From contig OZ076410.1 in assembly GCA_964187785.1 (NCBI GenBank), positions 25,978,001 through 26,042,000 of the forward strand: a stretch of DNA of 64,000 nucleotides, in the 5' to 3' direction. This DNA comes from Amphiscolops sp. MND2022. Its lineage: Eukaryota. Of the stretch, positions 6,389 through 54,888 are shown piece after piece (the first letter of the stretch is position 1; each line of letters opens with the position of its first letter). Position numbers and translations under genes: made by a program. Below the pieces are notes generated by a model. That model was not told the DNA's origin. It saw only the letters and a list, made by a program, of their open reading frames with translations, and did no database searches.

Positions 6389-6404
6389 CTCGCCGCTTTA
6401 AATG

Positions 6405-6836
6405 TTCTTCCCGTTTTGCATTAAAATGTTATTCCTTAGACTTTATTTGCGCCGCTCTTCGCTTTAGACATGTGTAAAGCGAAGAGCGGCGCAAATAACG
6501 GGAATATAGTCTTGAAGCGGCGAGTGACGGAGTAACGTCTAAGGAATGCATTATTCCCGTTTTCCAGTTAGATATTATTCCTTAGACGTTATTCCCGCCG
6601 CTCGCCCCTTTGGACGTTATTCCCGTTTTGCATTTAGATAATATTCCTTAGACGTTACTCCGTCACTCGCCGCTTTAGACTTTATTCCCGTTTTGCATTT
6701 AGATATTAGTCCTTAGACGTTATTATCGCCACTCGTCACTATAGATTATATTCCTTTTTGCATTTAGAATCTATTCCTCAGATGTTTTTCCCGCCGCTCG
6801 ACGCTTCAGTCGTAATTCCCGTTTTGCATTTAGATG
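6405..6836. repeat. ~62-bp tandem satellite (about 6 units) with an internal inversion
   Basis: Unit consensus is approximately TTCCCGTTTTGCATTTAGATATTATTCCTTAGACGTTATTCCCGCCGCTCGCCGCTTTAGAC. There is a near-perfect 54-bp palindrome at 6444-6497 and an inverted unit at 6497-6547. Confidence 0.85.
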
Positions 6837-7034
6837 CCATTCATCAGACGGCTGATTTACTCAACTGATTTTGTAACCAACTAATTACCATTTAGCATAG
6901 TTACAATAATTATCCAGGTGTATACATGATGTATAATCATGTATTTAAATTATATTTTATAGGAAAATAATAGTTAACTATAATTTTTCACAGTTCGAAA
7001 CTGGAAGAATGGAAAAGAGTGTTGATTGTTTCAG

Positions 7035-23530: not shown

Positions 23531-24651
23531 GATATCACTCTAAAGCTTTATTCGACCTTGAAAAGAGTTGCTTTTATAACAAGCACTTTAGCTGAAAGAT
23601 ATATTTGAGCTGTCGAGCACATTTCATTCAAACAACAAATTCTTCTTGGAAGCACTTCAGAGTGATTTTTAGAGTGGAAAGTCCTTCAAACATCCTCTAA
23701 AACAATCCACTGATTGGAAATCAAGTACGGAAGTATGTATGAATCATCAACTCATTGCTATTGAAGTTTCTTTAGAAGCTTTGGGGAAATTATGGGTTTT
23801 ATCATGTAAGTACTATCAGTAAACAAAAAGTGATGAGACAAAAACATCTAAGTAAAAGATGTAAGTTTGTATTACTTTAAGAAGAACACTTAAAAAACCT
23901 TTGATAGCTTGAAATAGTAAAACCGCGCTCACGCTGCAATAGAACAACAATTACCTCAGTCATCAACAATTCGTATATACACAGTAGTATTTAACAAACC
24001 TTTTTTATGCTAGAAAAATTTATGACTGACTCGAGTAACAGGTACACAGCCTCTGTATATACGTATCACTTGAACAAATGTCCCCACTAAGGATTTTTTC
24101 GGAAAAAAAAATAAATAAATGCTAGTCAGAGATTATTTTTGACACTTTGTGAGGCTTGTGGAATTTTTTTCTGGGTTTATATCGTGTCTTTTATTAAATC
24201 AACAATTCCCGATAAAACGAAGTTTTGTCCTCAATTAACACAGTGAAAACTCCAAGACATGAGTGTTTGTTCCAGAAGTTAAAATGCACCTGTGATATCA
24301 AGCTTTTCATTTGAGATGCGCTAAAACAAAGGAAAACATCCATTTTTCATCCTTTTGTAGAAAGGCACACGTTTTCTTCGTTTAGCAAACACTAGCTGCA
24401 AAAAATATTGCTAAACATCTCACTCTGCAAAAAGTAATTGCTTTTTGCCCAAATTTCAAACCTCTCAACAAAAACATCAATTCACTTTTGTTAATATATG
24501 GACGTTGGGTGGAAGCACAATCTATTCCCTAGGGTGATGCGCATCGTTAATGTTATGGCAAGAATATAAACAAATAAAACTATCTCAGAGGCGATGGAAA
24601 TGAAAACGAAACCAAAATGACATTCTTTTAAAAATTATTTTTTGATGATAC

Positions 24652-26393
24652 TGTAAGAGCCACGTCCCGTGGTGTCTCTCAAATCACCAACGGACCGCGA
24701 GTCCTTTTTCAATAATTTTGTTTTCAAGCCGGATGGATTTTCCCTATTTTCCTGACTGCTAGGGGACATACTAGCCTCAGTGTCCCTGTTCCCAGAGGAA
24801 GACATTGAACTCACAATATTTTGAATCTCTGGTAGCACCTTTTCTGATATGGCAGTACTGATTGCTCTATTTATTTGGCTATGTACCATGGCCATCATGG
24901 AATCCATTTCTTGAGACAGTCTAAGATTAAATTCATTTGAGAAAGTTTCAAAAGACTGCCTAACATCGTTCTGCCTGTATTCACTATTCTCATGGGAGAA
25001 GTTTCTATATTCACCCCTTTGGTACAGATTAGCCTCACTGTCACTACGAACTGAAGATTGTTCAATTACTTCAGTTAATTCTCTCTCTATAGGATTTTCA
25101 CTCCCATTACCTAACATTATGTCCAAGTTGTCCATATCGGACATCATGTCCATTTCTCTAGACTTTCTAGTTTTCGCCTTTTGACGTCTCGTAGAAGGCA
25201 TGAGAGATTGTTGCAAGAGGAAAGAATTTAAATTGAACTCTTTAAGCTTGCAAATAATATTGTATTCGGTATTATAACAGCAAACTTGACTGTGACTATT
25301 CGTATGAAGATTATGTCCCCAGGACCACGGGTCCCGGTTTTTTTTAATCAACTAAACATGACATGCATAAAAGTGGTAGTCATCAGTCTAATTTTAGTAA
25401 CAGGTATTCTAAAAATAGACACAACATACAACGTGTCTTTACAAGTATATTATCATAATACTAAAAATAGCAACAACTATGACGTAATTGATTTACGTGC
25501 TTCTACATATATGAAGTAGTTACATTCAAAGATGTACATGCGCCCCTTCAGGCCATCCAATCAAGTTTCAGTAGCAACACTTCATGTAAAACAATACATG
25601 CTAAATCATATGAAATAAATACATGCAAAGATGGTGTGTGAACATTGAGCTGTCCTTTATGGCTTTTTAAGATACAAACAGCCCTTTTGACTTTCTATCC
25701 AGGAAGTTCTGGAAATTAAGAGAACACAAAATAAGGGGGGGAAGGACTAATGGTCCTTTTGTAAACAAGGTGACAGGTCTCCAATCAGAGCAAATATACC
25801 GCTTCTGAGATAGTACATTATCAATTTCAATATACGCACTTCTTTTATTCTACTTTGGACTCAGTGTCCACGCGTCCTTATTTAATACAAGAGTAGTGTC
25901 GTTGTGGTGGCGTGTGGCCCTTGAGTCCTTTAATTTAGAATACAGCACAGGAGCGAGCAAATGAACAATGCACTGTGATTGGTTGAGAAATTGGACGGAC
26001 AGCGCGTCTAGCGAGACAGGAAAGGAAACATTTGAACTCGTTTCCTTTACCTGTACGCCTTGGTGTCCAATTTCTCAGCCGTGGTATATATCTATCACTG
26101 TTATACATGTATTAATACACTATATTCAATTTTCAACTACATACTTTACATGGCTAATTCCGGATAATTATTCCAAAGCTTTCCAAACTTCATTAATATA
26201 AAAGCCCCGAATAAAATGATATACTTACATAAACATATGCGAAATCAATCACAATAAGATAAGTTTATAGTTTGTCTTCTTAGCCTTTTGGACTAATAGT
26301 CCATTCCTCAGTTCATTGGGAGGGTACCAGGGAGAGTATTGTAGTTGTAGCCGACTGAGTACCAATTGCCGTCGCAGGCGGCAGCCCGCGACA
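24652..26393 (-). repeat. 3' LTR (1742 bp) of the giant element; contains a copy of the gag 5' end (25201-24652)
   Basis: Near-identical to 38800-40540 (about 13 substitutions and 1 indel by eye). Confidence 0.97.
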
Positions 26394-27126
26394 CTCCCCC
26401 TGGCATAAGTAGAAAAGCGTTTGCGTTCATGCCATCTAGGAATGCTCTCCTCCTTGCCTGAGTCTCAGCTAAAGTCTCTCCTACAGTTACTGTCCTGTCC
26501 AGATATTCATTGACGGTCTCTTCTTGAATTTGTTTGACTGATTTCCCGCATACCACGCAGTCTGAGTAGTTGACTAAGGAGGGTGGCTCGGCAAGGACCA
26601 TCTCGTCGAAATGACTTGCCACCGCTTCCATTGACGTGTTCATGGAGGATGGTGAATCGCCACGAGGTTCACATGGGTATTGTAGTCCTCTGTCCTGTTC
26701 AGGTGGAGATAGCGGGGTGTCCACTTGCGGTACTAGATTTCGGCATATATTTATGGGGTGATTAGATTTGATCCTGTTGTCCCGACTTACAGGCCCATTT
26801 CCCCTTGCCAAGTTGAAGTACTTCTCCCCAAAGGTAGGAAATGGTGGCACATTTGGCCTGGGCGTCACAGGTCTTTTCTGCTTCTGACCGGCTGAGGTTG
26901 AAGGAATTGATATGGGCTCCGCAAGTTGTCTTTCAATGCATTTGGCCATGAGTCTAATCTCGTATGATTCGTCTTCGGACGACAAGTACAAGTCATCCAC
27001 AGACCACCCACAATTCGAGTCCATCGCTTCCTCTTCGTCGCTAGAGATGTATATGATTGCCGGTTCCCCTTCTGATCTTGCTGCTCCGATGAAGTCCATC
27101 GGGAAGGTCTCAGAGATGTCTGACAT
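26308..27126 (-). CDS. ORF3, 272-aa accessory protein of unknown function (acidic N-terminus with SIM-like IIYISSDEEE; CxxC), running through the PPT into U3
   Basis: ATG-initiated intact ORF whose last 86 nt lie inside the 3' LTR. No signal peptide or TM segment is visible, so it is not env-like. Confidence 0.7.
   Translation of the reverse strand: MSDISETFPMDFIGAARSEGEPAIIYISSDEEEAMDSNCGWSVDDLYLSSEDESYEIRLMAKCIERQLAEPISIPSTSAGQKQKRPVTPRPNVPPFPTFGEKYFNLARGNGPVSRDNRIKSNHPINICRNLVPQVDTPLSPPEQDRGLQYPCEPRGDSPSSMNTSMEAVASHFDEMVLAEPPSLVNYSDCVVCGKSVKQIQEETVNEYLDRTVTVGETLAETQARRRAFLDGMNANAFLLMPGGVSRAAACDGNWYSVGYNYNTLPGTLPMN
26394..26401 (-). other. Polypurine tract (AGGGGGAG) of the giant element
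   Basis: Immediately precedes the TG of the 3' LTR on the minus strand. Confidence 0.85.
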
Positions 27127-28349
27127 AGCTCGGATTTTGAAGATTTTCTTTGCAATTTTGATTGTTTTCCTGTTGGAATTTAGGTGTTGTTGAAATCAAC
27201 TGATTTTCAGCAGAGAAATTGAGATTATGGCGATCTCAGTTTCCTTCGACAGCGAGTCTCTTCGTCTCTCCTTTCCCGGGTTTTCACATTTCCCGGCAAG
27301 TAATTCTTCAATAACAGATTCCGCTTCTCTTGTTCTTTTATCATGCCGCCAAGACACTTTGTAATTGCCGACATCAGTTTTATTGACCATCATCAGCTAG
27401 GCTAATACTTCTAAGTTAGGAGAGTTACTTCAAGTGTTTATTAACACTCATCAGGTACTTGAGAGACTCAAGGAGGTAAAGTTATGGCAGTCAGCCACGC
27501 CGGCCTTCATCAATATGATCAACCAATAAGATTGCAGCAAAATTTCTCCCAAGTTAAAATGGCTTCTCAAGGTCGTAAATCCATATAAGGGATAATATAA
27601 AATGACCTTGAAAACGGAATAAAATGAAATAAAATAAAATAAATTAAAATAAAATCATGGAATAATTTTGCAAATAACAAAGTTTTCGAAATTAATGGAA
27701 AAGTAGATATCGCTGGCAGCCTTTATCCACATATCTCCATAAATTGTAAATACTTGTAAATTTGACACCAAATTGTATAGCCACGAACTCCAATCTTGAC
27801 ATCTTGTCACAACGCCAATTCTTCTTTCAATTCTTTATCATTCAGTTGTACTATTCACTTCTTGTATTATCCAGTATTTAATCACCAACGTATTTACTCA
27901 TCGTATTTTTAACCAATTATTTAGTCTTTGAGTCGTTTTTATTTATATTTTCCACTCGTCTTCAACACAGGACTCAGTGTCCATTCGTCCTCATCCCCGT
28001 GGGTTTCCTCAACTTCTCCCGGAAAATCGACATCCAGTCCCAATTTTGGACGTCCCCATCTAGCTGTCAGCTCGGCTCGACTTATCTACACAAATATCAC
28101 TTACCAACTCCCCCGCATTGGAATACTAACAGGTCAGTTGTTCTTCATACATCTTCATTAGCTAGGCTAGATTTTTGAACTAAATTGAGGCTTGATCAGG
28201 GCTCTCTTTTCGTTCAAGTACTTCCTGTCCACGTAACACGAGTGTTCACAAGTGTTCAATTTAATCTACTTCCGGAAGATTTTTTAACGCGGTTAATGGA
28301 TTTTAACTCAGGAAGCTTGCCGCTTGAATTCATTTCTTTCTATTTAGAC

Positions 28350-31300
28350 ATGTCGTCTGAAGAACAAATCGCCGACACAATTCTTCCAACATCAGAGAAT
28401 CCCGAGGTTGCCGAAGAGACCAATACAGCACCAAAGGAGCCAGTAGTGATAACTCGTCCTGACTCCAACCAGTCATCTAGTAGTGGAAACACTGAAGAGA
28501 GCATAACCACATATGCGGAGAAAACTTTACGGACACTGGCTAGTGATAATCCTTCTCTGGATATTTCATTTCTCCCGGCACCGACACTACCTGAAGATGG
28601 AACAGCAGGGCCCATAAAGGTTTCCCAGTCGATAGGTTTTGAACGTCTAGGAAAGGAAGCCTTCTCACTCGACGGCATGCAAGAAACTGGTAGCTACATT
28701 GAGCCACGGGACAAGAGCAAGGAGTACTTTGCCACTGATACTAGTGAGGCTGGCGAGCTGCTTGACGAGATGGGTACTGAAGGAACGCGTAAACGGCCTA
28801 CCTCAAGCGTTACCTGTTCTGAATTACCATCTGCAACCGAAGGTGCTGCCGGACAAGATACAGATGGTACTTCGTCTGGAGTCGCAAAGTCTGGGTTCCG
28901 AGAGGTGAAATTACCAGAACGATTTTCGGCTAATGGACAGGCTGTTTTAAGGAAACACTTCTCCTCATCTGCCCCAATTGAATTGCCTAAAGGTCACAGT
29001 ACTGTTTCATTCAGTGAGCCGCAAATACATGCCGTCCTCAAAACCATATCAGATGAAACTGTGAAATCATCCATCCATGCCATGCGTTCCCTTGTCTTAC
29101 ATGCTGTTTATGGGGCAGGAAAGCAGACTCCTGGACAGTTCCGGAAATCAATGGTTCGAGGCGTGGTCCCTACACGAGGCGATCCCAATAGCTCAGGTGC
29201 TGATACAGAAAGTGAGGGAGGAATGACAGACGATTATACGAGCGGAGCCCTCACCTCTGATGATGAGCTCGTTGTTGCAGCCAGGCCACGCTGTGGGACG
29301 CCACTACCAAGAGAACGTTCTGGCTACCCAAATACTTCCGATGAAGAGATGGACAGGACTCCTAGTACCAGCCATACCACAGTCCCTAGTCCAGGCTACA
29401 GTGAGGGAGACTACCAACCTCTAAGTGCCATGCGGGTAGAAGACCGACCACGACGACCTGGAGGCAGTCCGCCGCGCAAGAAGCGGAGGTACGTGGGCAG
29501 ACCTGGCAAAGTCATGAAGGCTGCCTATTTCAAAGGTATTCAGTGGACCAAGGTCTTCGTAACTGGACCACTAGATCCTGTGCATAACAAGCACAAATTC
29601 TACTGCCAAATTTGCAAGGCGAACGTGTCAATCTATTCCAAAGGGGCCAGAGAAATCGTGAGACACTACCAGAGTGAGACCCATCTGCGCAAAGACCAAC
29701 GATGGCGCTACGAACACCTTAGTAGGGTGGACAAAATCAGTGGACAGACTGTCCATGCAGTTAGAGGGAGGGACGGACATCTCCTTTCCGCTCTAGAACT
29801 AGAGAAGGAGAAGCCACGTTTCGAATCGGCTCCATTAGTGGATATTGGCCCTAGATTTCCCTTTTACGACGACTATATGGCCAATGCTGGGGGAATTGCA
29901 TGCCCCGAAGATTTGAGACTGGGTACTCAACTTTCTTTGATTGGACGAGCGGTCCCACATTTCGGCAATCTGACTGTACTGGAGAGACTGTGGGCCGAGG
30001 TTGGGAATTTCACCAATCATCAAGACACTTTCCGACAGCTTGATTGGAGTTCGCTCACGCTCACTGTAAGTCTTTTCATTCTTTCTACAAGTTAGGACCA
30101 CTAAGCGTATGAATTTTGAAAGTGTACCTTAATCCACTAAGTCTGTTGAGCCATAGTTTGCCCTTTCCAATTTTTGGTGATTTCGTTTTGTTCTAGGCCA
30201 TGTTTCACCACATCTTTTTGCGCGGAATGGAGGATATAGCCCAGTCCGTGAATTCCTGCGGCTCATACTCTCTGGAGTTTGAACCACACGGAAATCAGTG
30301 CATCCTTTCAATCAGATACTGGAAGGCGAGTACCCTGGCCAAGGTTCAATTGTGCAAGTACCCACTGCCTTCGGACCCGGGCCCCAGTCAGTTACTGATG
30401 GTTTCACGCCTACTGTCCTTTCTTTCCACGCTGCCACAAATTGCCTGTGTATCAGGTTGTACTTCCGAGGTGTTGCGATCAGTTGAGCGTTCCGGGCTGT
30501 TCAAGAAGGGCATCGAGTACCCATTCCGCTTCAATGCCTTTTCTCTTCACAAGCTAATGCATCAGCTTGAAGGGAGTGTGTTCGGACGAATTGACTTCTT
30601 CACACAGCTGAAGTACCTTCTGGCCTTCCTCAACAACAGTCTAGATGAGCCTTGGATGTCTTCTTGCCCAGAACTGACCAAGGTTTGAATTAATATTGCT
30701 GGACTCGTATGTTTGCACATTGTTTGTGCGTCTCACAGCACAGAGTATTCCTTTTAGGCTATAATCAATTTCGACTTGAAGATACGGTGCATTCCGACTA
30801 TTTGTACTGAATTGATCAGCAACTGGCAGCCTCTTCTTGACCACCTGACCAGACTTGCCCCTGGCTACGAAATGCGAGGAGTTAAAAATAAGGTTTCGAT
30901 TTTTCCTTCTACCTGTTTCGGTTTTCTTCTCATGACGTACGACCCCAGGATCACTATCCATTAATTGCTTGAGTTCCCTTTTAGCCGCAGAGTCTTGAGT
31001 GGACTATCATCACCGATGACTTCTTCTTAGTCAAGTTGGAATTCTTTGGAAAGATCATCTATGATTGTGAGTATTGCTTTTGTTTCAGAGGGAATTTACT
31101 CGTGATCGTTCACGTAGTTTCTTTGCAGGGACTCACTAGGTAAGGCTTTGTACTCAGAGGTCTATTTCCCTGTTTAGATATTCGTTGCTTTGAGAGAAGT
31201 CTAGTTGGACACAGGGACGCTGGTTTCTTCACCTTTGGGCAGTTGAATAATTTTGCCCGTAAGCTATGCTATCGCTCTTTGCTCCCCAAGCACCATCCTA

Positions 31301-32337
31301 GCGAAACCGATTGGACTCAACTTCCCATTCTGCGAACTGCTGAATTGCGACAACTCTCCACCAGGGACTTTCTTCACCGCTTGAAATTGAAAGAAGATCT
31401 AGACGGAGCTGCTAATTCTAAGGTCAAGCGGGACTACAGTGACAAGGAAGGGCCAATACCTAATTTCCCCAAACTCGTTGAGGAATGCAAGGAGAAGTTC
31501 GCTGGAAAAGCAAGGGGTTATGTGGTCTACCTTCTTGAGAAGCTGCTAGCGCATCACAGCATCAATGCTGAGATTGTGAAGGGAATGGCCAGTTTTGACC
31601 CACACATCCTCTTGAGTCTGCCTCGAGACCAGGCGACCTATTGTTACCGGGCACTGTATAACAGCTTCAATCTCCGTGGATGGTTGGAAGGATTCTCTGA
31701 AGACGACTGTCGGGACGAGTACCTCGAATTTATCGACTTATTTCGCGAAAAGTATGCTACCCTGGAAGATTCGCCTGATGGTTTTACTGATATGGTGGAA
31801 TTGTTGTCTAATATGACTGAGCTCCGAAGTCGACCTCATTTGTATCGTTTATTTCGATTGTGTTGCTTGTGCTTGACAGAGGACACCCCTTTGCTTCCGC
31901 CTATCCGTTTCCAGGATGTTGACGCACAGAGTCCTCGGTGTAGATTGGGTGACGTGTTGCTTCCTGCTCAGTCTTTCCTAGCACGAGCCCCTGACGCCAT
32001 CTCGGTTTGCACTAACGATGTCTCTTTGTGTAAATATCGTGAGGTTGAGCAGCAATTCAATTCTGGCAATGTGGCTGGTGACCCTTGGGTCCACGTCGAC
32101 ACTTTTGGGCGAGCTAATTTTTATAAGACTCTCCATGCCGCTTACGAATCTGTGGTCCGAGTGCCGAGGTCAGCTTCCTCGAGTAAGACTGGTTCGCGTT
32201 CTAATTCTCCTGCTGCAGTTGGTCGGCGTAAATCTTCTCCTGGGAAAGCAAAAAAGAAAGTTTCTTTTGATGGCTCCAATGCTGTGAAGGGTACCACAGA
32301 CGGCCAAGAAGCTGGACAGAAGGCCACTAAATCTTAA
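28350..32337 (+). CDS. Antisense spliced cargo gene, ~1192 aa: low-complexity N-terminus, NLS, BED-type zinc finger, degenerate hAT-transposase-like body
   Basis: Predicted exons are 28350-30065, 30197-30682, 30758-30892, 30985-31066 and 31178-32337. The four GT-AG introns (131, 75, 92, 111 bp; phases 0,0,0,1) join into one stop-free frame of 3579 nt. PPRKKRR lies at about 29469-29489 and C-x2-C-x16-H-x5-H at 29604-29684. A probable 5'UTR intron is 28133-28347. Confidence 0.8.
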
Positions 32338-32561: not shown

Positions 32562-35500
32562 CTAGTATCTGTATTCATCAGTGAAGTTGGGGGTGGGGTT
32601 AGGTCGAAGATTATATTTCCCTCCTCTAGGGCTAGAATTTTTTTCATTTTTTCCTTTTTCCGATATTCCGGGCACGGTAATATCTACGCCCCTTTCTGAA
32701 GCAATTTCCGCATTCTCTAAGTCATTTGTGACGTCATTTTGATTTTCCGTCCCACGTGGCGTTTCGTCTAGCGGGGACGACGCGTTACGGTTGCTGGCCG
32801 ATCTCGGCCGTACTTCATTCTCGTTGACGTCATTGTCATTCATTCTCTCGCTGCTGCGCTCACTTTCGTTTACGCTGCTGCTTTCATTCTCGGTGACGTA
32901 ATAGTCGACTTCTCCGTTCGCGGCGTCCTGTGGCAGACGCGTGGCCGTATGTGGCCAATCATTTATCTTCGGCTCGAATAGCTCGTACTCAAAGTCCGCT
33001 TCCCATGAAATGGTATACAGATCATCTTGCGGTATTACGATTTCTTCATCGGGCTGTAATTTCTCTTCTTCGTATTTGTCCTCTAATGGAGCATTTGGGA
33101 CAAATTTTTTGAGCCTTATCCGGTGCAAGATTTGCGTTTTATTCGTATTTAAACGACGCACTATATAATTGTTATTTGGTAGAGTTTTTTGAACGACAAA
33201 AGGACCAATCCATCGGAAGTCCCTAAATGGTATCTTAGAGCCTTGACTATCCGCTTTCGGTTGAAGAACAAAACAGTAGTCTTTCTCTTGTAGCGGAGCT
33301 GCTTTGGCCTTGCGGTCGTAGTACTCCTTGTACTTTAAATACGACTGCATAATATTCCTTTTGGTTTGATCAATGAGGATTTGTGTCCTCTGCTGCAATT
33401 CTTCCGCGAATTCAGTCGTCGGTAGGAAATTTTTGTTAGGATTATTCCCTAATTTGTGATCCAGGACGTTATAGGGAATTCGGCCATGAAAGACTTTGCT
33501 AGGCTCACAACCAATACTAGCGTGATAAGTAGTGTTATAGTTAAGCACAGCTAATGGTAAATATTTGTGCCATTGACGACGGTATTCCCCTGAGGCCATC
33601 TTTAGGTTGGTTTTTAAAGAGGCGTGTGTCCTTTCAAATTTACCAATAGTTTGCGGATGTTTAGTAGTGGCACACTTCAATGTGATCCCCAGTATTGCAG
33701 TAATTTCTTCTAAAATTTTTGATGTAAATGCGGATCCCTTGTCCGTGATGAGTGTTGTTGGCAAATACGAATGTTTCGTCATGATGTCAATTATCACCTT
33801 GGCTACGTTTGCGGCTGTTGCCTCAATTAGCGGGTAGGCGAATAAATATCTTGAAAATACGTCTATTGCCGTCATCACCGTTTGGTATCCGCCGCTGGTT
33901 GGTAAATTTGGCAGTAAATCGATTTGCATGGCATCTTCTGGGCCTAGGTCCCATTCAGGTAAATTCAGTAATTCTGGGGTGATTACCGTGTTGGGGACCC
34001 TTTTGTCCTTGGCACATGTTTCGCAGCCTTCTACCCATTTTTTGACGTGTTTAGCAATTCCGGGGTAGTAGTATTTTTGGCGAATTTCCTGCAGCATTTT
34101 AGAAATGCCCGGGTGTCTATGTGCCGTGCCATGTATTGCTTGCAATAATTCTTTGAGCAAATGCTTTGGCAATAAGATTTGATGATATTTGACCTGTCCG
34201 GTTTCATCGTAGTACTGCCGCGTCACTATCTCGTCTTTGAGGACTATTCGATCTATGTTGTTCAAGTAATACTTGTACCGAATATCCTGTTGAAGGATTT
34301 CTTCAGAGTATTCTTCTTTTTGAAGTTTCGCCCTCAATTGGAGGAGAATCGGGTCTCTGGATTGTTCAAGCAGTATCTGATTTGTTCTTCTTAATTTCTG
34401 CGTGAAATTGGTAATCTCTTCGACGGTATTTTCTGATATAGCGTCAATTTGGATTACTGTCTCAGGGACTATGAGGCCCTTTTTGGATTGTTGTTTCCGT
34501 TTCCAAATCTGTTCTTCTGTTTCGTTGTCCTCCTCGGTGAAGAAAATTTGCTCTTCTTCTGATACGCCGGCTGATTGGACATTGACCTCGATCGGTCTAG
34601 TTTCTACGTCCTCTCGTATTTTCAGGACCAACTTTTCAGTAGGGTCCATTTCCATACGGGACAAGTAGTCTGCCGCTGTATTGTTTTTGCCTGGAATGTG
34701 AGCTATAATGAAGTTGAATTGAATGACAAAATCACAAGCATTCCAGAGAGGCGGTGGAATTATCTTTGTCTGGAAGAACCTCGTGACCGATTTGTTATCT
34801 GTGAGGATAATCACGGGTTGAGGTGTTCCCCAGAAGATATGTCCAAACTCCTTAAATGCATAATATATAGCTAGGAATTCCTTTGCATATATCGACATTT
34901 TGAGCTGAGAAGGCGTGAAAGTTTTGGATCCATATGCAATCGGCGCATAGGACTTTTTAACAGAAGTGTATTTTTGATTTGGGTCGTCTTCGGTCAATAT
35001 GGCGTAACCGGCTGCTGTAAAACTTGCGTCAGTCATGAGGACCAGTTGTTTGTTCGGCAGAGGTTGTTTCAACGCCAATTGACTACATCGGTCTAAATCA
35101 CGGTTGATCGCAATAAATTGTTCAACCAGCTCTTGCGTGACTAGTACCTTTTCATCCTTTTTGAGCAATTGGAAGAAAGGAACTAGTTTTTCGGATAGCC
35201 TTGGAATATAATTCCTGTAGTAATTGAGGAAACCAATATAGCGTTGTAAGGCCTTCTTGGACTTTGGGAATTTCGTCTTTTCCAAGAAGATAGCGATTCT
35301 TTCTTTTTGGGGCTTTACGCCTTCAGGTGTAATGGTTCTCCCAAGAAAGTCAATTTCAGTAGCGCCGAAATGGCACTTGTGCATGGAAAATTTCAATCCT
35401 GCTTCTCTGATACATTGGAACGTTGCTCTTAAGTTGACGATAAGCTGGTTAGCGTCTGTCGCCGCGACACCGATATCGTCCACATATTGAGCACATTGGT

Positions 35501-37631
35501 CTGCTTTTATAACACGATCCAGGTATTCCCTCATGAAACTGGAGAAGGCCGACAGGGCTCTACTGAGTCCTTGGGCCAATCTTCTATATGCAAATGTCCT
35601 GCTGGCGAAGTTGAAAGCTAGCATTTCAATCGATTTCTGGTCTGCCATAGGAAGGCAATGATAAGCTTGGGAACAGTCGAGTTTGCAAAAGAGCTTTTTG
35701 CCTGCCATATGTTGCGCCGCATCCGTCAAGGTGCTGACTGGGTGGTTGTTATTGACGTAGTCATCTGAAATCAGATTATTGATCTTCCGCAAATCCACCA
35801 ACAGTCTCAGTTTTCCATTGGGTTTTTTCTGCGCAAATATTGGACCGGCGTACTTCGAGAATGGTAATGTTGTTATAATCCCATATTTATGGAGTAATGC
35901 CAGTTCGACCAATATGTCCTCTTTGAGGTTGACCGGAGTAGGTAGGCTCTGACTGTAAGCAGGCGACTCGTCCTTTGGGGTCAGTTTGACCGTAAATTCC
36001 TCATTGACGCCAATGTCAAATTTATGGCGTGCAAAGATGTCATGGAATTCCACTAATAGAGTTTCTATTTGTCTGATTTCATGTTGTTGTAACATTGAGT
36101 CCTTCCAATCAAAGTTGCCGAGGAATTTTCGACGAGATTCCGCATCGTCGTGCGGGTTGAGTTGTTCTAAACTTTGCAGGTTTCGTAATTCTTTGAGAAT
36201 TCTTTGTTGTATTGGGGTATGGGTCGTTTCGTCCCCTGGGTTTTCAGGCGTCGGGAACCAATATTGTTCGTATTGGTCATTATTTCTGTTAGCTTTAAGA
36301 AGGCTACTAATATAATAAATAGCGTCGTCTTCATTTTCATTCAGTAAGTGCCAGGTGGACACTGGGTCTATTGGCCTGACGTGTTTCATCTGTTCAGGGG
36401 TCATCACTGAAAAGTTTGCAATGTGCATCCCTTTCTTTATTTTATAGGGTTGATCAGTGAAATTGTTGACGTGTATTCTCGTAGCCCCTTCATGTAGTGT
36501 GAATATGGCGGTACAGAAGGTTATGTCGCCTTCCTCGTGCAGAAGATCGCTGGGTTGCAATATGCCCGTAACTGCATTTTCTGCGTAAATTTGTGATTGA
36601 ATGGGTATGACCACATGGTCATTGGGCGGAATTGTGACATCCTCAGGATTGAGGATGGGTTCCAAAACATTTGAGTATTTATGGTCAGCCGTCTTGAGTT
36701 GCATCGAGAAGTAGGGAAAGTTGAGTATACCTTGGCGCATGTCCAGGACAGTGTGGTTCCTTTGAAGGAATATTAGTCCAATTATGGGGCTTGACAGTTT
36801 TTCCATTACAATGAAAATTTCGTGAAATTCTATGTCGCCCACTTCGAATTTTAGTTCGACTGTGCTCTTTGGGGTTTCTAAGTCTCCATTTGCGACCATT
36901 ATTTGGAAGGATGGGGCAGGACCTTCTTTTACAATGGATTGAGGGGCCAACAGGCGTATTTTCCTGAGGTCTGCCTCCGGGATTGCACTGGAGTGGGCTC
37001 CAGTGTCTATCAGGCCATCTAGAGTTAATTCCCCAAAGTCCATTGGGAAATAGAGCATTCGTCGTTTGAATTTAAGTCCAAGGTTTGTTGAAAGGGGAAC
37101 GTATGGTAATTCTCCTTCTTTGGTCACTAGGAGGTGTAAGAAGGCTGTCTCGTCTAAAAGACTATTAGGAGCCTTGTGGTCCTCCTGTGTGTGTATGGCG
37201 TCTCCTTCTTGTATAGTTGCCTCAAAGTTCGGCTGCCAAAGATCAATGAGGGCCCGAGACAGTGTGTTGTCTTCGATGTCTGGGTCGTCCTCGTCGTCAG
37301 TTGGAGGGTAATCTTCGTTTCGAAATTGTAAATTTGTTTTGTCATATAGTTCGTCGTCCCAGTACGGGTCTTTGCCATACTCGGGGTCATAGTACTGAGG
37401 GTTATAATCTTCGACAGTTTGTAAGGGTCTAAATTGAGTTTCAGAGTCGTTGTAATTGCTATTCCGTCGATATAGGTATGGGTGATCACTGTGAATGATA
37501 TATTGAGTTTCTTTGCGGGCGTCGGCCAACTGCTGCTGCCAGACAGTCGATGGCATCCCTGTGGTGTCGTTTTGAGTTTGTTTATATGTAATGTTTGCAG
37601 GGTCAGATATGACGTACTGTCGTACTGACAT
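32562..37631 (-). CDS. Pol polyprotein (PR, dUTPase-like insert, RT, RNase H, integrase), 1689 aa from the first Met
   Basis: Motifs: LIDTGA (protease), LLVDLR, KLDCSQAY and YVDD (RT), TDAS (RH), H-x3-H..CETC, IDLL/TDKG/FER core and WIGPF (GPY/F module). The PR-RT-RH-IN order is diagnostic of Ty3/Gypsy. Confidence 0.97.
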   Translation of the reverse strand: MSVRQYVISDPANITYKQTQNDTTGMPSTVWQQQLADARKETQYIIHSDHPYLYRRNSNYNDSETQFRPLQTVEDYNPQYYDPEYGKDPYWDDELYDKTNLQFRNEDYPPTDDEDDPDIEDNTLSRALIDLWQPNFEATIQEGDAIHTQEDHKAPNSLLDETAFLHLLVTKEGELPYVPLSTNLGLKFKRRMLYFPMDFGELTLDGLIDTGAHSSAIPEADLRKIRLLAPQSIVKEGPAPSFQIMVANGDLETPKSTVELKFEVGDIEFHEIFIVMEKLSSPIIGLIFLQRNHTVLDMRQGILNFPYFSMQLKTADHKYSNVLEPILNPEDVTIPPNDHVVIPIQSQIYAENAVTGILQPSDLLHEEGDITFCTAIFTLHEGATRIHVNNFTDQPYKIKKGMHIANFSVMTPEQMKHVRPIDPVSTWHLLNENEDDAIYYISSLLKANRNNDQYEQYWFPTPENPGDETTHTPIQQRILKELRNLQSLEQLNPHDDAESRRKFLGNFDWKDSMLQQHEIRQIETLLVEFHDIFARHKFDIGVNEEFTVKLTPKDESPAYSQSLPTPVNLKEDILVELALLHKYGIITTLPFSKYAGPIFAQKKPNGKLRLLVDLRKINNLISDDYVNNNHPVSTLTDAAQHMAGKKLFCKLDCSQAYHCLPMADQKSIEMLAFNFASRTFAYRRLAQGLSRALSAFSSFMREYLDRVIKADQCAQYVDDIGVAATDANQLIVNLRATFQCIREAGLKFSMHKCHFGATEIDFLGRTITPEGVKPQKERIAIFLEKTKFPKSKKALQRYIGFLNYYRNYIPRLSEKLVPFFQLLKKDEKVLVTQELVEQFIAINRDLDRCSQLALKQPLPNKQLVLMTDASFTAAGYAILTEDDPNQKYTSVKKSYAPIAYGSKTFTPSQLKMSIYAKEFLAIYYAFKEFGHIFWGTPQPVIILTDNKSVTRFFQTKIIPPPLWNACDFVIQFNFIIAHIPGKNNTAADYLSRMEMDPTEKLVLKIREDVETRPIEVNVQSAGVSEEEQIFFTEEDNETEEQIWKRKQQSKKGLIVPETVIQIDAISENTVEEITNFTQKLRRTNQILLEQSRDPILLQLRAKLQKEEYSEEILQQDIRYKYYLNNIDRIVLKDEIVTRQYYDETGQVKYHQILLPKHLLKELLQAIHGTAHRHPGISKMLQEIRQKYYYPGIAKHVKKWVEGCETCAKDKRVPNTVITPELLNLPEWDLGPEDAMQIDLLPNLPTSGGYQTVMTAIDVFSRYLFAYPLIEATAANVAKVIIDIMTKHSYLPTTLITDKGSAFTSKILEEITAILGITLKCATTKHPQTIGKFERTHASLKTNLKMASGEYRRQWHKYLPLAVLNYNTTYHASIGCEPSKVFHGRIPYNVLDHKLGNNPNKNFLPTTEFAEELQQRTQILIDQTKRNIMQSYLKYKEYYDRKAKAAPLQEKDYCFVLQPKADSQGSKIPFRDFRWIGPFVVQKTLPNNNYIVRRLNTNKTQILHRIRLKKFVPNAPLEDKYEEEKLQPDEEIVIPQDDLYTISWEADFEYELFEPKINDWPHTATRLPQDAANGEVDYYVTENESSSVNESERSSERMNDNDVNENEVRPRSASNRNASSPLDETPRGTENQNDVTNDLENAEIASERGVDITVPGISEKGKNEKNSSPRGGKYNLRPNPTPNFTDEYRY

Positions 37632-37660: not shown

Positions 37661-39349
37661 TTAGTTTTTTGAGTCCGTTTTACGTAAGTTTGATTGGCTT
37701 GAAGATGCAGTTTCAGGGTTAGTTGACTTTTTGGACGATTTTTCATCGCCAGAGGTGTCATCAGCCTTATCCTCAGGACGTGTCCTTTTGGGTCGTAAAT
37801 GTGCTCCAGCCCCTTTCCAGCATCTTTCAACAGGGTGATTTTTCTTTCCGCAAGTAGGGCATTCTGGGTATGTAGGACGTTGGGGCTTTTTGCCATTTTT
37901 GTCCTCCAGTTCTTTCTTCTTCTTCAATTTAGGGCAGCTCTTATAGAAGTGGCCTGTGGCTTTACAATAAGAGCATTGTGCGTCCTTTTTAGTATTTATG
38001 CCATTAGAGAGCAAATTGTTGTTACTGGTGGACGCAGAGGCCATTGTAGCGATTGGCAAATCGTCTGACTCTTCTAATGCGTTGAGTTCAAGCTCTCTTT
38101 CAAGATGAGCGACGACTTCTTCATATGTCCCGTTCTCCAGGCGGGCCATATTGACAGATCGTTTCAATTTTGGAGGCAGTTTTGCGTATAATAGGCTGTC
38201 AATCATGCTTTTTGCATTTTCGCCGAAAGCTTTTTCTGCCCCCTGGTTCAGTTCTTCCAAGAAATCCGGCAATTTCATGGTATTCGGATCGAAAGTCAGC
38301 CGATGCCATTTGTGTTTTGCCGTTGCTTGGGATTCCGGTTTGACGTATTTCCTCCGGAATATGATTAGCACATCCTCGAGTGTTTGGCGGTTAATTGAGT
38401 TTATGTTCCTGAAGGTCTGCAGGGCCCCTTTTCTGAGCAATGAGTGAAAATGGTTTATTTTCATTTGCTCTGTCATGGCCGGTTGCATTTTGATCATTGC
38501 GTGGAACAAATCTTCAAAGAGTTCGAATTTCTCACTCTTTCCGTCAAACGTCATTGGTGTCGTTTGGACAGGTCGGATAGTCATCGTTTGGGGTTTATTT
38601 TGCAAATTGACTAGTACATCAGCCAATCTATTGAGCGGGTCCTGAGGCTGCTCTGTGACCTCTGGTTCTGGCGCTGGCAGAGTGGTGTCCAAAGAGACAT
38701 TGTGGTTAGACTGCTGTCTCTCTAGGTTCAGGATTGAGTGGATTCGTCCAGTGAGAAATTCAGGTATAGGCTGTTGGGCTTCGTTAGCTCCTGTCACCAT
38801 GTAAGAGCCACGTCCCGTGGTGTCTCTCAAATCACCAACGGACCGCGAGTCCTTTTTCAATAAGTTTGTTTTCAAGCCGGATGGATTTTCCCTATTTTCC
38901 TGACTGCTAGGGGACATACTAGCCTCAGTGTCCCTGTTCCCAGAGGAAGACATTGAACTCACAATATTTTGAATCTCTGGTAGCACCTTTTCTGATATGG
39001 CAGTACTGATTGCTCTATTTATTTGGCTATGTACCATGGCCATCATGGAATCCATTTCTTGAGACAGTTCAAGATTAAATTCATTTGAGAAAGTTTCAAA
39101 AGACTGCCTAACATCGTTCTGCCTGTATTCACTATTCTCATGGGAGAAGTTTCTATATTCATCCCTTTGGTACAGATTAGCCTCACTGTCACTACGAACT
39201 GAAGATTGTTCAATTACTTCAGTTAATTCTCTCTCTATAGGATTTTCACTCCCATTACCTAACATTATGTCCAAGTTGTCCATATCGGACATCATGTCCA
39301 TTTCTCTAGACTTTCTAGTTTTCGCCTTTTGACGTCTCGTAGAAGGCAT
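37661..39349 (-). CDS. Gag, 562 aa from MPSTRRQK, with two CCHC zinc knuckles; the first ~183 codons lie in the 5' LTR
   Basis: CSYCKATGHFYKSC and CPTCGKKNHPVERC. The ORF-track start at 39499 is a TTG; the first ATG is at 39349. Confidence 0.9.
   Translation of the reverse strand: MPSTRRQKAKTRKSREMDMMSDMDNLDIMLGNGSENPIERELTEVIEQSSVRSDSEANLYQRDEYRNFSHENSEYRQNDVRQSFETFSNEFNLELSQEMDSMMAMVHSQINRAISTAISEKVLPEIQNIVSSMSSSGNRDTEASMSPSSQENRENPSGLKTNLLKKDSRSVGDLRDTTGRGSYMVTGANEAQQPIPEFLTGRIHSILNLERQQSNHNVSLDTTLPAPEPEVTEQPQDPLNRLADVLVNLQNKPQTMTIRPVQTTPMTFDGKSEKFELFEDLFHAMIKMQPAMTEQMKINHFHSLLRKGALQTFRNINSINRQTLEDVLIIFRRKYVKPESQATAKHKWHRLTFDPNTMKLPDFLEELNQGAEKAFGENAKSMIDSLLYAKLPPKLKRSVNMARLENGTYEEVVAHLERELELNALEESDDLPIATMASASTSNNNLLSNGINTKKDAQCSYCKATGHFYKSCPKLKKKKELEDKNGKKPQRPTYPECPTCGKKNHPVERCWKGAGAHLRPKRTRPEDKADDTSGDEKSSKKSTNPETASSSQSNLRKTDSKN
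37664..37670 (-). promoter_or_regulatory. -1 ribosomal frameshift slippery site A_AAA_AAC
   Basis: Lies directly before the gag TAA. The -1 frame reads KKLISPRLQICNK-MSVRQY, in frame with pol. Confidence 0.8.
38788..38799 (-). other. Primer-binding site TGGTGACAGGAG (tRNA-Leu-like), embedded in the gag ORF
   Basis: Abuts the LTR terminal CA. It matches 11/12 to the complement of the vertebrate tRNA-Leu(CAG) 3' end as I recall it; host tRNA not verified. Confidence 0.75.
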
Positions 39350-40540
39350 GAGAGATTGTTGCAAGAGGAAAGAATTTAAATTGAAATCTTTAAGCTTGCA
39401 AATAATATTGTATTCGGTATTATAACAGCGAACTTGACTGTGACTATTCGTATGAAGATTATGTCCCCAGGACCACGGGTCCCGGTTATTTATAATCAAC
39501 TAAACATGACATGCATAAAAGTGGTAGTCATCAGTCTAATTTTAGTAACAGGTATTCTAAAAATAGACACAACATACAACGTGTCTTTACAAGTATATTA
39601 TCATAATACTAAAAATAGCAACAACTATGACGTAATTGATTTACGTGCTTCTACATATATGAAGTAGTTACATTCAAAGATGTACATGCGCCCCTTCAGG
39701 CCATCCAATCAAGTTTCAGTAGCAACACTTCATGTAAAACAATACATGCTAAATCATATGAAATAAATACATGCAAAGATGGTGTGTGAACATTGAGCTG
39801 TCCTTTATGGCTTTTTAAGATACAAACAGCCCTTTTGACTTTCTATCCAGGAAGTTCTGGAAATTAAGAGAACACAAAAGAAGGGGGGAAGGACTAATGG
39901 TCCTTTTGTGAACAAGGTGACAGGTCTCCAATCAGAGCAAATATACCGCTTCTGAGATAGTACATTATCAATTTCAATATACGAACTTCTTTTATTCTAC
40001 TTTGGACTCAGTGTCCACGCGTCCTTATTTAATACAAGAGTAGCGTCGTTGTGGTGGCGTGTGGCCCTTGAGTCCTTTAATTTAGAATACAGCACAGGAG
40101 CGAGCAAATGAACAATGCACTGTGATTGGTTGAGAAATTGGACGGACAGCGCGTCTAGCGAGACAGGAAAGGAAACATTTGAACTCGTTTCCTTTACCTG
40201 TACGCCTTGGTGTCCAATTTCTCAGCCGTGGTATATATCTATCACTGTTATACATGTATTAATACACTATATTCAATTTTCAACTACATACTTTACATGG
40301 CTAATTCCGGATAATTATTCCAAAGCTTTCCAAACTTCATTAATATAAAAGCCCCGAATAAAATGATATACTTACATAAACATATGCGAAATCAATCACA
40401 ATAAGATAAGTTTATAGTTTGTCTTCTTAGACTTTTGGACTAATAGTCCATTCCTCAGTTCATTGGGAGGGTACCAGGGAGAGTATTGTAGTTGTAGCCG
40501 ACTGAGTACCAATTGCCGTCGCAGGCGGCAGCCCGCGACA
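38800..40540 (-). repeat. 5' LTR (1741 bp) of the giant element
   Basis: Direct repeat of 24652-26393, bounded by the PBS and the TSD. Confidence 0.97.
39991..40129 (-). promoter_or_regulatory. Candidate LTR core promoter/polyA region: CCAAT (40125-40129), TATTAAATAA (40025-40034), AATAAA (39991-39996)
   Basis: Order and spacing on the minus strand match a typical U3-R arrangement. Motif-only evidence. Confidence 0.35.
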
Positions 40541-45147: not shown

Positions 45148-46039
45148 CGAGAATTTCAAAAAACTGAAAGCAAAAGCTGTGATTAATACACAATCCTTCC
45201 CAGAAGGACTTTGTATTCTTTGGTGGATTCGTAAGGATCAGTAATTTCCGAAATTTTGAAATTTAAAAATGTCTAATACATTTCTTAGTTTATCGGAAAT
45301 ACACAATGATTCCATTTAATTTCCATTGCAATAAATGCCAAAATTTGAGATACTTCCCCTTATGGAATAGGTCTATAAAAGAGACGTCCCAATTAACAAA
45401 AATGATAATTTGTCTCCAACCTTTTGGTATCAAATTCCATGTTTTTTTCCAGAGAAAATACAGACTAAGGCTTTTCTGGTTGTGACACTCATAATTACAT
45501 GAGGCCAATTCTCCGAAGGCGTGGTATCAAAATTTCAGAGAAAACTGCTTTGCCGAAGAACAATTAGTCATTGTAATAAATTCACCTGACCGAAACATTC
45601 TTCGAATTCAAGAAATTTCCAACTGGTAAACTGGAAAGTTTTTTAACGAATTGTGGTTGCACATATGTTATAAATACTTCAAATAATAAATATTGTGTAT
45701 GTTTTTTTTCAATAAAGAAGTTTTCTGCTCTAAAAATGGCACCAGACGTTAGAAATTACCATGTTTTGTATAAACGATTTTGCAATTTCCTTGATGAGCT
45801 GATGTGTGCCTAACTTCACATATATCTTGACAACATCACCCAACGTATACATAAACATCATTGATAACAGTCTTAGGTAACATGAATTTATTATTCTTGT
45901 CTATATCAAATGAGGAACACCTACAGTTACCTAACCGGGATGCAATCAAGCGCAGTCTACTGGTGGTCACCGAAGGTGCACCCAAAAACGACCAGTGTAC
46001 GACCGAGGTGGTATTTACAGCTTTTGCATTGGGAACTTG

Positions 46040-46239
46040 ATTGGTTTTCTCCAAGTCCGTTGATTTTTGGTAACGTAATATGCGAAATCAGTTCAAGGAT
46101 TTTATTTTTGAAAAAAAACGATACGAGCCTATTATATATATATATAATGGGCTCGTATCGTTTTTTTTCAAAAATAAAATCCTTGAACTGATTTCGCATG
46201 TTACGTTATCAAAAATCAATTTACTTGGAGAAAATCAAT
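46040..46239. repeat. 200-bp spacer-less palindrome centred on (TA)n
   Basis: Arms are nearly perfect over 46081-46198, with a few more mismatches outward. Confidence 0.9.
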
Positions 46240-48730
46240 AAAGTAGCTAGTCCACTACTTTTTGCATTTCGAGGAGTACGTAAAAACATGGGATTTTCAT
46301 GAAGTAGTCAAAGTCTAAAAATCCACAGAGGTTACATTCAGGTTTAAGTTTTTGCTTTAATTTTGCACGTGGTTCTGTTGAGTTTGAATTTCTTTGCGAT
46401 TGCTTTTATTTCGATGATTTAATCTTCTATTGAAAAGTTTTATTCGCTTAACAACGGCCTTGTTTGAGATTAATTTTCGACTTTTATTGCTTTCAATTTT
46501 TGCTCCAAGACAAAAAAGAATAGAATCTTTCATCTTTGATATGTAGGAAGTTGCGAGTTTCCTTGCTGTTTACAAGTTTCACGTTTTCGAAAAATAGTTG
46601 TTCCCCAAATACTGTCTAATCGTCCAGCTGATAGTTGTTCTGATGGTTTTTCATTCAAATCATTGTGCTTCATGTCCCGTAGCGTTTCCACTTACCTGTT
46701 TTGTTACTATGTCACTGGTATCAAACTCAAGTTGAGCAAGACGGAAACCTTTTTAAAGCGTCGTTAGTTCACTGTTTTGAGCCTCTCCGCAGTGCACAAC
46801 CAAAGCACGTAACTCTTTGTCAAGAAATTGCAACAGCTTTTGCGTTGTTTTCTCAGAATCATTTGATACCAAACCGTGTACGTTCGAAAAAGGTTACATT
46901 TGCTTTCTCTACATTGGTCAACTTTGGGTTCAAATCTGGATTTTCATGTGGTCACGTGCTTTGGAGGATGCATGGTCGCATAGGGTCAGTTTCAGCTACA
47001 GTTTTGGAAAGAAGCTCTTTTTATCTTAGCTGTTATTGAATGCGTCATCTTGGCTCTTGGTTGTAAATCACAAGGAAGTAACTTCATGGAGATATGTTTT
47101 AAGGAAGAGCCCAATGGAGCAGTCCACTATTTCGCAAACTCAAATCTGACTTACAGAGCTTTCCTGAACTATAGAGACATAGTTAGCCCCGCTGGTAAGG
47201 GCCTGAATACCGGGTCGACTTTAATTTCTCCTGTATTAGAGATTGAAATTGACAGCACATTCAAGCACTTGCTTGAAAATGTCTCGGATTTAAAAGCAAA
47301 ATCAACCAAGTGTGGCCTTTCAAGTTAAATTTCAAATGGTTCTTTGATTATATAGCGGTAAATCTTCTTACTTCCTCTATAAAGATTAGGTTTGGTAATA
47401 TATTGGCATTTTGTAGATCTTTTGAGTGAACTTTTTGTGGCTGATCAAAAATACGAGTTATTTAAACACCAAGCAGTACCGCTTCTCTCAAGAAATAATA
47501 CATTCCATGCCAATTTTGGAAGCTAGCCAAGTTGTTCGCAGCGCTATTAAAAGTTCGTCAAAAATGTTCCATATGAGCAACCAAATAGGATAAAAATAAC
47601 TTCTCTATTTTGTTTTGTTCTGAAATGTTTCATTAATTTTGACAGTTCATGAATTTAAAGTCTCGAAATTTAACACCTGCTTGCTTGTTGTTTCAAACTT
47701 GGCACATCAATCATTTCTCATCGAATGCATTCAATAGCTTTGTAAATGTGTGTAGAAATTTATGAAATACGTTTAAAACACTGTTCAACACATGTTGCCA
47801 CTGTTTCAAAACAAGTTGTCAGAAATCGCAATGATAAGTTCAGAAAATTATTAATCTAAAAAATGGTGCCAAAAATATTCAAAGCGTTTTGTAAGAGCAA
47901 ATAGCCTTTGAAAAATGCTGTTTTTTCGTTTTTCAACTTCATCTGAGTAGACCTATTTAGATTTAATGAACCTTTAATGAATTCTCCAAACGCTGTCAAT
48001 GGATTTCCATGTTTGCATAGCTCAGCTGTGAGCTCAATATTCCTTTAATTCCTGTTCTCTATTTTAAAAATGGTTTTAAAAATATGCCTGAAGTTGGTGT
48101 AATAATTGAGTACATGAAATTCGAACTTCCATTGAAAACGCGAAGAGACTTCCAAGTTTTATATATTCGAAGTTTAACTTTCATGTGTACAAATTTATTT
48201 TAATGAGATTAAAGGGAAATTTTCATGGAAGTTTTTCGAAGTTTCAAGAACTCATATTTTTGTACAGCTTTGTAACGAAACCTCTGACTTTTACTGACAA
48301 TTTCATTTGGGAAATCTAAGAAATTGGAAATTGGTACATAACATACAATCCTGAAACTAGACAAAGGTTGTTCACTATCAGACACAAGGTACTTCCAAAT
48401 GAGTTCCGAAAATAGAAAAAGGAATTCACAATTATATAGACATGAAGAATTTGACTACATCTCCTTTAAAATGAGTGAAAACTGTGTGCTAACCTTCAAA
48501 AATTGGCAAAGTTTTTGATTGCTTCCAAAATTTGAAGTGTTTGCAAATGGGGCCAAAGGATGAAACCATACTGACAATGATGAATTCTAATTTTTGAATT
48601 CATTGATTGCATCTACTTTCGAGAACGTCTCCACTTCAAATTCCCGAAAAATTCGGGTCACAAAACTTAAAGATAATTGCAGTATTTTGTATTACGTCTC
48701 TTCTTTCTAGTTTGGTAATAACCAGGGGTA

Positions 48731-54687: not shown

Positions 54688-54888
54688 CAGTCCGAGAAAT
54701 TCAGTTGTTGCAAGAATTGTTGCAACAACTGAATATCTCGGACTGATACTTCTGGCTGAGGTCATCATGTTATGTGCATCGCACTGACAATACAGGCAAT
54801 GTATTAGAAAGCTCTAGAGCTTTCTGATACCTTGCCTGTATAATCAGTGCGATGCACATAACATGATGACCTCAACCAGAAGTATCAG
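54688..54888. repeat. Two abutting palindromes (54688-54745; 54743-54888)
   Basis: The second is 146 bp, centred on AAGCTCT|AGAGCTT with no spacer. Confidence 0.85.

Follow-up and report, generated by a model that had tools for sequence, protein, structure and literature searches.

The 64-kb stretch of Amphiscolops sp. MND2022 DNA analysed here (the window) contains one complete long terminal repeat (LTR) element on the minus strand, running from 40540 to 24652 (15.9 kb). The element has direct LTRs with TG..CA ends that are 99.2% identical (13 substitutions and one indel), and carries the 5-bp target duplication GTATC on both flanks. Because this duplication flanks the element, the LTR end at 38800 is placed independently of any open reading frame. 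The features of the element, and of two decayed elements of another family in the same window, are as follows:

38800–40540, minus strand: 5′ LTR, 1741 bp.
39487–39494, minus strand: TATA box, 145 nt upstream of the gag start codon; RNA is predicted to start at about 39464–39462.
37661–39349, minus strand: whole gag open reading frame, 562 aa, with a capsid-like region and two zinc knuckles beyond the primer site.
38800–39349, minus strand: LTR-borne part of gag, 183 codons plus the A of the junction ATG, 550 nt.
38788–38799, minus strand: primer-binding site, 12 nt, for tRNA-Leu.
32562–37631, minus strand: pol, with protease, dUTPase, reverse transcriptase (RT), RNase H and integrase identified by profile search.
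28296–30095, 30200–30688 and 31585–32337, plus strand: antisense open reading frames between pol and ORF3.
26308–27126, minus strand: ORF3, 272 aa, reading through the polypurine tract, with its last 86 nt in U3 of the 3′ LTR.
24652–26393, minus strand: 3′ LTR, 1742 bp, with its TATA altered at two positions (25344 and 25340).
24635–25201, minus strand: 3′ LTR copy of the 183 codons plus 5 flank codons, 188 aa, stop at 24635.
8255–8468/12830–13043 and 61588–61809/62856–63077, plus strand: LTR pairs of the two decayed control elements, 214–222 bp per LTR.

By its sequence, the element is a Ty3/gypsy-type (Metaviridae) LTR retrotransposon. In particular, the pol domains follow the Ty3/gypsy order of protease, RT, RNase H and integrase, with a dUTPase domain between protease and RT (about 36400–36650, minus strand, E 1.4e-4, just over the cut-off); integrase does not precede RT, as it does in Ty1/copia elements; a 12-nt tRNA-Leu match follows the 5′ LTR; and the closest solved structure for pol in the PDB is Ty3 Gag-Pol (E 1.6e-44). 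The pol frame is −1 relative to gag, and an A-AAA-AAC run lies immediately before the gag stop, suggesting that gag leads into pol by a −1 frameshift. The purine run before the 3′ LTR is 8 nt long, and some related lineages are pyrimidine-rich at this position (the lineages whose Gag begins MPTTRK are not purine-rich there). Outside the element, the window contains perfect-hairpin palindromes of 146–210 bp and a 65–66-bp tandem repeat (46035–46244, 54743–54888 and 6389–6850).

The region between pol and the 3′ LTR carries open frames on both strands. In 26 of 27 whole elements the sense frame, ORF3, crosses the polypurine tract and stops 44–92 nt into the 3′ LTR; its C-terminus contains cysteines and matches no Pfam family above the cut-off. 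The antisense frames are conserved in all lineages read. The first of them has a weak Pfam match to a BED-like zinc finger (E 0.23) and ends at a GTAAGT donor-like site, found at the same place in all four aligned lineages. The three antisense frames probably belong, as exons, to a single spliced gene that has a putative BED-like zinc finger; this gene may resemble a captured hAT-transposase-like gene with introns.

The gag gene begins inside the 5′ LTR. Its first ATG, at 39349, lies 550 nt within the LTR as bounded by the target duplication, and the frame remains open across the LTR boundary (..TCT TAC A/TG GTG ACA GGA GCT, the slash marking the boundary). The primer site is read as (M)-V-T-G from 38799 to 38788, with all 12 nt exactly complementary to the 3′ end, followed by CCA, of tRNA-Leu(CAG/AAG) genes in the same genome. 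The tRNA-Leu 3′-end pattern has 964 matches in the genome and 0 in a reversed control, with tRNA-Leu called at 3 of 12 matching loci checked. The 183 codons recur in the 3′ LTR (25201–24652) with 4 nucleotide differences and 3 residue differences. An LTR-internal gag start, a coding primer site and a second copy of the codons in the 3′ LTR had all been put forward in a preliminary description of this DNA, and all three hold. Translation of a single Gag protein likely begins at the first ATG, whose context is weak (C at −3 and +4), and continues past the LTR end and across the tRNA-Leu primer site. Most of the 964 pattern matches lie in a large tandem array of tRNA-Leu-like genes at C8:35587099–35636985, and arrays of tRNA-Lys and tRNA-Arg genes are present on contigs C7 and C8.

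The LTR-borne part of Gag comprises a basic N-terminus, an acidic linker, a long predicted helix at about residues 80–135, and a second linker. This part matches no Pfam family above the cut-off and no PDB entry; elsewhere in Gag, DUF1759 and zf-CCHC matches fall below the Pfam cut-off, and the capsid-like match covers residues 268–398. The predicted fold of whole Gag is of low confidence (pLDDT 41), and within the N-terminal third it is the helix that is modelled best (pLDDT about 70), the model being otherwise poor. Predicted RNA folds of the leader and of the primer region are not significant (z −1.2 and −1.6).

To define how widely this layout occurs, we searched the element's own genome with the LTR-borne peptide, four library proteins (79, 57, 36–38 and 46% identity) and one further query. 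In the window element and 30 fetched whole elements, the first gag ATG lies 550–649 nt inside the LTR in 31 of 31 cases; in most of these, paired LTRs end at the same junction, with target duplications, and the LTR pairs are mostly 97–100% identical. A further 136 loci were examined, 117 of which contain the primer 10-mer, giving 139 primer-site-bearing copies after removal of 9 duplicates. An open frame from a matching start 523–652 nt inside the LTR is present in 127 of the 139, a fraction biased toward open frames because the copies were selected from Gag hits with mostly long frames. The 127 copies retained all combine a matching start with 540 aa or more of open frame, and the 12 excluded ones are masked, broken or unmatched at the start. 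Eight copies with short frames were checked separately: three have the same LTR start and a later stop, three are broken before the junction, and two lack the primer 10-mer. In all 127 retained copies the primer site is identical and the junction reads xACA followed directly by TGGTGACAGGAG, with the LTR boundary between them, and Gag identity to the window element reaches down to 35%. LTRs in the clade are 1.5–1.9 kb long. An LTR-embedded gag start is a trait of the whole clade and not of a single copy.

The family is very abundant and, with LTR pairs this similar, recently active. A first-look search of the genome returned 18,960 candidates for the LTR-borne peptide. Stops within the 183 codons occur in just 5 of the 150 LTR copies with the best scores, which, with the purifying selection described below, sets the open frame apart from chance. 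The lineages whose Gag begins MP and those whose Gag begins MG have N-terminal parts without detectable homology to each other, though the MG part is equally long. MG-lineage Gag (for example L139:2812–3378) opens with M-G-N-(K/R)-R and a basic cluster, has no detectable homology to the M-P-S-T type, and may have at this start something like a myristoylation signal. A related Gag in the protein library, P0126, has several V/M-V/M-T-G-like repeats before the capsid region, which are possibly tandem copies of the primer-site segment; neither P0126 nor P0130, another library protein, has a close copy in the Amphiscolops sp. MND2022 genome. Outside this genome, searches for relatives returned one 1.2-kb metagenome contig without an LTR, and none among viral contigs.

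The LTR-borne codons are under purifying selection. Values of dN/dS for these codons are 0.14 and 0.16 between the window element and two relatives, and in unsaturated pairs range from 0.07 to 0.34, compared with 0.03–0.22 for internal gag; p was ≤3e-5 in all 80 pairs, which share ancestry and are not independent. No other frame on either strand is free of stops in any of the 127 copies. These values, with the open frame in 127 of 139 copies, bear out the expectation that the LTR frame is conserved and selected among relatives. Residues M1, T4, R5, K8, K10 and S14 are invariant across 20 diverse members, and therefore the first ATG itself is selected. In each of the five groups, synonymous divergence falls over the first 100 nt starting at the primer site (0.14–0.22, versus mostly 0.3–0.5), as expected of an RNA signal that would lie inside the gene.

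Both of the remaining frames run into a stop no more than five codons from the junction, so that a gag crossing it must read M-V-T-G. The junction ATG itself arises because the LTR end CA abuts the primer site TGG, and any CA followed by TGG spells ATG. The two conventional control elements likewise have ACA followed by TGG; there gag begins 55 nt later, and the frame from the junction ATG is closed or out of frame. The junction Met is thus a by-product of an integrase-defined end (CA) meeting a tRNA complement (TGG).

The most likely promoter, judged by motif conservation, is the TATA box at 39494, with an RNA start at about 39464 predicted from spacing. A TATAWAW motif lies 114–193 nt ahead of the gag ATG in 35 of 37 non-MG representatives (mean 3.2 and maximum 9 in 200 shuffles), and a GACA-like motif recurs about 30 nt after it. 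Among MG representatives, 9 of 17 have a TATA at ATG−279 to ATG−300, and the other 8 have no canonical TATA there. No TATA is conserved further upstream (at most 4 of 54 representatives per 50-nt bin from −900 to −350), and no poly(A) signal (AATAAA or ATTAAA) is conserved in the representatives. In the window element no ATG intervenes between the predicted RNA start and gag, and across the set 12 of 36 elements have one between TATA and gag. The position of the gag start requires an R-U5 longer than 550 nt; since the TATA at 39494 predicts a start near 39464, R-U5 would be about 665 nt, and minus-strand strong-stop DNA would be of the same length and would carry the whole N-terminal domain. 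Of the two sizes proposed earlier for R-U5, the lower bound of 550 nt stands, and the alternative of about 1.2 kb gives way to the value predicted by the conserved TATA.

Two alternatives bear on where Gag and the packaged RNA begin. Gag, or its main isoform, could start at Met184, with the LTR-borne frame a later extension or a separate accessory peptide. Met184 is invariant and has G at +4, codons 184–562 contain the capsid-like region and the knuckles, Gag of the other window elements lacks a long N-terminal part, and the non-homology of the MG and MP parts points to a replaceable module. However, the invariance is forced by CA plus TGG, and the same ATG is closed or out of frame in the control elements; the predicted RNA has 17 earlier ATGs; in the 127 copies the two parts of gag are not divided by a stop; and no fetched copy is of a relative whose gag starts at the junction. 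We therefore consider a start at Met184 very unlikely, and the proposal of the preliminary description that the junction Met is the ancestral start is not sustained. The other alternative is a pair of RNA pools, with Gag made from the RNA that starts below the TATA at 39494 and the packaged template starting at an upstream, TATA-poor promoter, giving strong-stop DNA of up to about 1.2 kb. In barley BARE, packaged RNA can begin upstream of translated RNA, the former being uncapped (as described in PMC3735527); U3 in the present element is long (about 1.07 kb), and the poly(A) signal could not be placed. Against such an arrangement, which we think unlikely, no upstream TATA is conserved, and clean within-LTR divergence steps in non-MG pairs fall mostly from ATG−106 to ATG+92, just past the predicted start, where homology also resumes. 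A single TATA-driven RNA that begins at about 39464 and is translated from the first ATG remains the preferred reading.

The two halves of gag have different histories in several lineages. Distances in the two halves disagree: for example, dS is 1.5 versus 0.09 for one pair, and for a second pair 0.43 versus 1.16. The LTR-borne part and the internal part also give conflicting trees for the MG group (AU p 3e-33 and 1.3e-4, the groups having been named after the trees were seen), and in the MPTTRK group eight elements, drawn from three LTR clades with strong support, have in common a single internal segment that is nearly identical among them. In several pairs divergence steps from 19–38% to 2–4% within 13 nt of the LTR end (likelihood ratios 77–191), and in one MG pair the swapped block spans the predicted start region (ATG−269) to the LTR end, that is, the R-U5 span. 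Abrupt steps in synonymous divergence are seen at the primer site in 16 pairs and at −60 in 10, and at any of 19 other positions in no more than 6. Lineages of this family have swapped the LTR-borne half of gag, and several of the swaps lie at the primer site or close to it.

The placement of these exchanges suggests a role for reverse transcription itself. According to PMC6894440, an intermolecular first strand transfer joins R/U5 of one parent to the other. RNA primed within its own coding sequence would yield strong-stop DNA of about 665 nt with the whole N-terminal domain, which could transfer to a different co-packaged RNA; the daughter would then combine one parent's N-terminal third of Gag with the capsid, nucleocapsid and pol of the second parent, the two parts meeting in frame at the primer site, whose M-V-T-G does not vary. 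We lean slightly toward strand transfer as the cause of the swaps at the primer site.

Ordinary template switching, or sweeps of packaging signals just after the primer site, could instead account for the conflict between the halves. An unbiased triplet scan places 7 of 26 breakpoints at −50 to +150 and the rest along gag (breakpoints were collapsed and are not independent), and is weaker than an earlier triplet set, which was biased in having been chosen for differing across the primer site. Some breakpoints fall at +34 to +58 and not at 0, the segment after the primer site is constrained at synonymous sites, which can sharpen steps, and correlations of left and right distances show no consistent minimum at the primer site. 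Because the unbiased breakpoints are spread along gag, ordinary template switching is frequent and a primer-site hotspot only suggested. Switching or sweeps as the whole explanation are plausible, if somewhat short of probable; the abrupt steps so close to the LTR end (13 nt at most) and the MG-pair block that matches the R-U5 span argue against them. A further possibility concerns the frame copies outside the 5′ LTR: 3′ and solo LTRs might express the 183-aa domain with a short tail, which would co-assemble with Gag through the helix and curb transposition as copies rise. At 15 such loci the frame continues 1–81 residues into the flank (median 13), and 14 of the 15 keep both TATA and open frame, the exception being the 3′ LTR of the window element; the large number of genomic candidates and the predicted helix, the best-modelled part of the domain, also speak for it. 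However, use of the frame in the 5′ LTR fully explains selection on it, the family is abundant and recently active, the TATA is lost from the window element's own 3′ LTR, and the capsid region, through which Ty1 p22 acts, is absent from the peptide. Specifically, a p22-type product contains the C-terminal half of capsid, and the LTR-borne part covers residues 1–183, short of the capsid-like match. The suggestion that 3′ and solo LTRs encode such peptides thus stands as regards coding capacity; for a restriction role the analysis found no evidence, and we regard it as improbable. A combined scheme, in which the LTR is a swappable cassette of promoter and Gag N-terminus shuffled by first strand transfer and the domains from 3′ and solo LTRs brake the family in a copy-dependent manner, is decidedly doubtful. 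The copies of the frame in 3′ and solo LTRs are best explained as by-products of LTR duplication.

For the clade as a whole, the best explanation, which we hold with good confidence, combines a selected gag start 523–652 nt inside the LTR, a likely TATA-driven RNA, likely read-through of the primer site, and swaps probably made by strand transfer. The layout, its conservation, the selection and the swaps are seen directly in the sequences, and the RNA start, translation start, strong-stop length and role of strand transfer are inferred from them. The layout is qualitatively that of Ty1, more than tenfold larger and in another superfamily. In Ty1, according to PMC5454406, the 5′ UTR is 53 nt long and the primer site is at RNA nt 95–104, hence inside GAG; the two systems share a gag start ahead of the LTR end and a coding primer site. 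In Ty1, however, the LTR holds about 40 nt of GAG, compared with 523–652 nt here, amounting to a predicted helical domain and a third of Gag; and Ty1 is a Ty1/copia element with an initiator Met primer and 334-bp LTRs, whereas the present elements are Ty3/gypsy elements (integrase last) with a tRNA-Leu primer and LTRs of 1.5–1.9 kb. Ty1 p22/p18 is an element-encoded truncated Gag that, like a peptide here, could scale with copy number; p22 uses the capsid region (as described in PMC4599808 and PMC4551931), whereas the product here would be the N-terminal third, from 3′ and solo LTRs.

Ty3/gypsy elements of bdelloid rotifers have the same PR-dUTPase-RT-RH-IN order plus an ORF3, and a gag within the LTR is not described in the available text (PMC5408684). 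The likeness rests on gene order; in the present elements, unlike those of rotifers, ORF3 enters U3 and is separated from pol by an antisense gene. Plant Retand, likened here by its description, has a long region between pol and the 3′ LTR and an 'antisense ORF', and gag within the LTR is not mentioned in the available text (PMC11963269). Nothing on LTR-embedded gag was found in the available text of PMC3286476, PMC4202319, PMC7055915 and PMC9210276. In the literature outside subscription journals and Repbase/GyDB, we found no description of hundreds of gag codons in an LTR.

In the family described here, both borders of the LTR are coding: gag covers U5 and the primer site, and ORF3 covers the polypurine tract and U3. 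LTRs are usually viewed as non-coding, and annotation tools seek gag beyond the primer site. With such an LTR, every solo copy would be a promoter with a 20-kDa reading frame, liable to be miscalled as a host gene; 14 predicted proteins match the LTR-borne Gag only up to residue 183–186. The layout has been kept in a clade so diverse that two of its lineages share no detectable N-terminal homology. It would provide a natural test of the maximum length of strong-stop DNA compatible with transfer, and would allow intermolecular and intramolecular first transfers to be told apart from protein sequence. It may also offer a route by which reverse transcription itself would shuffle a protein domain.
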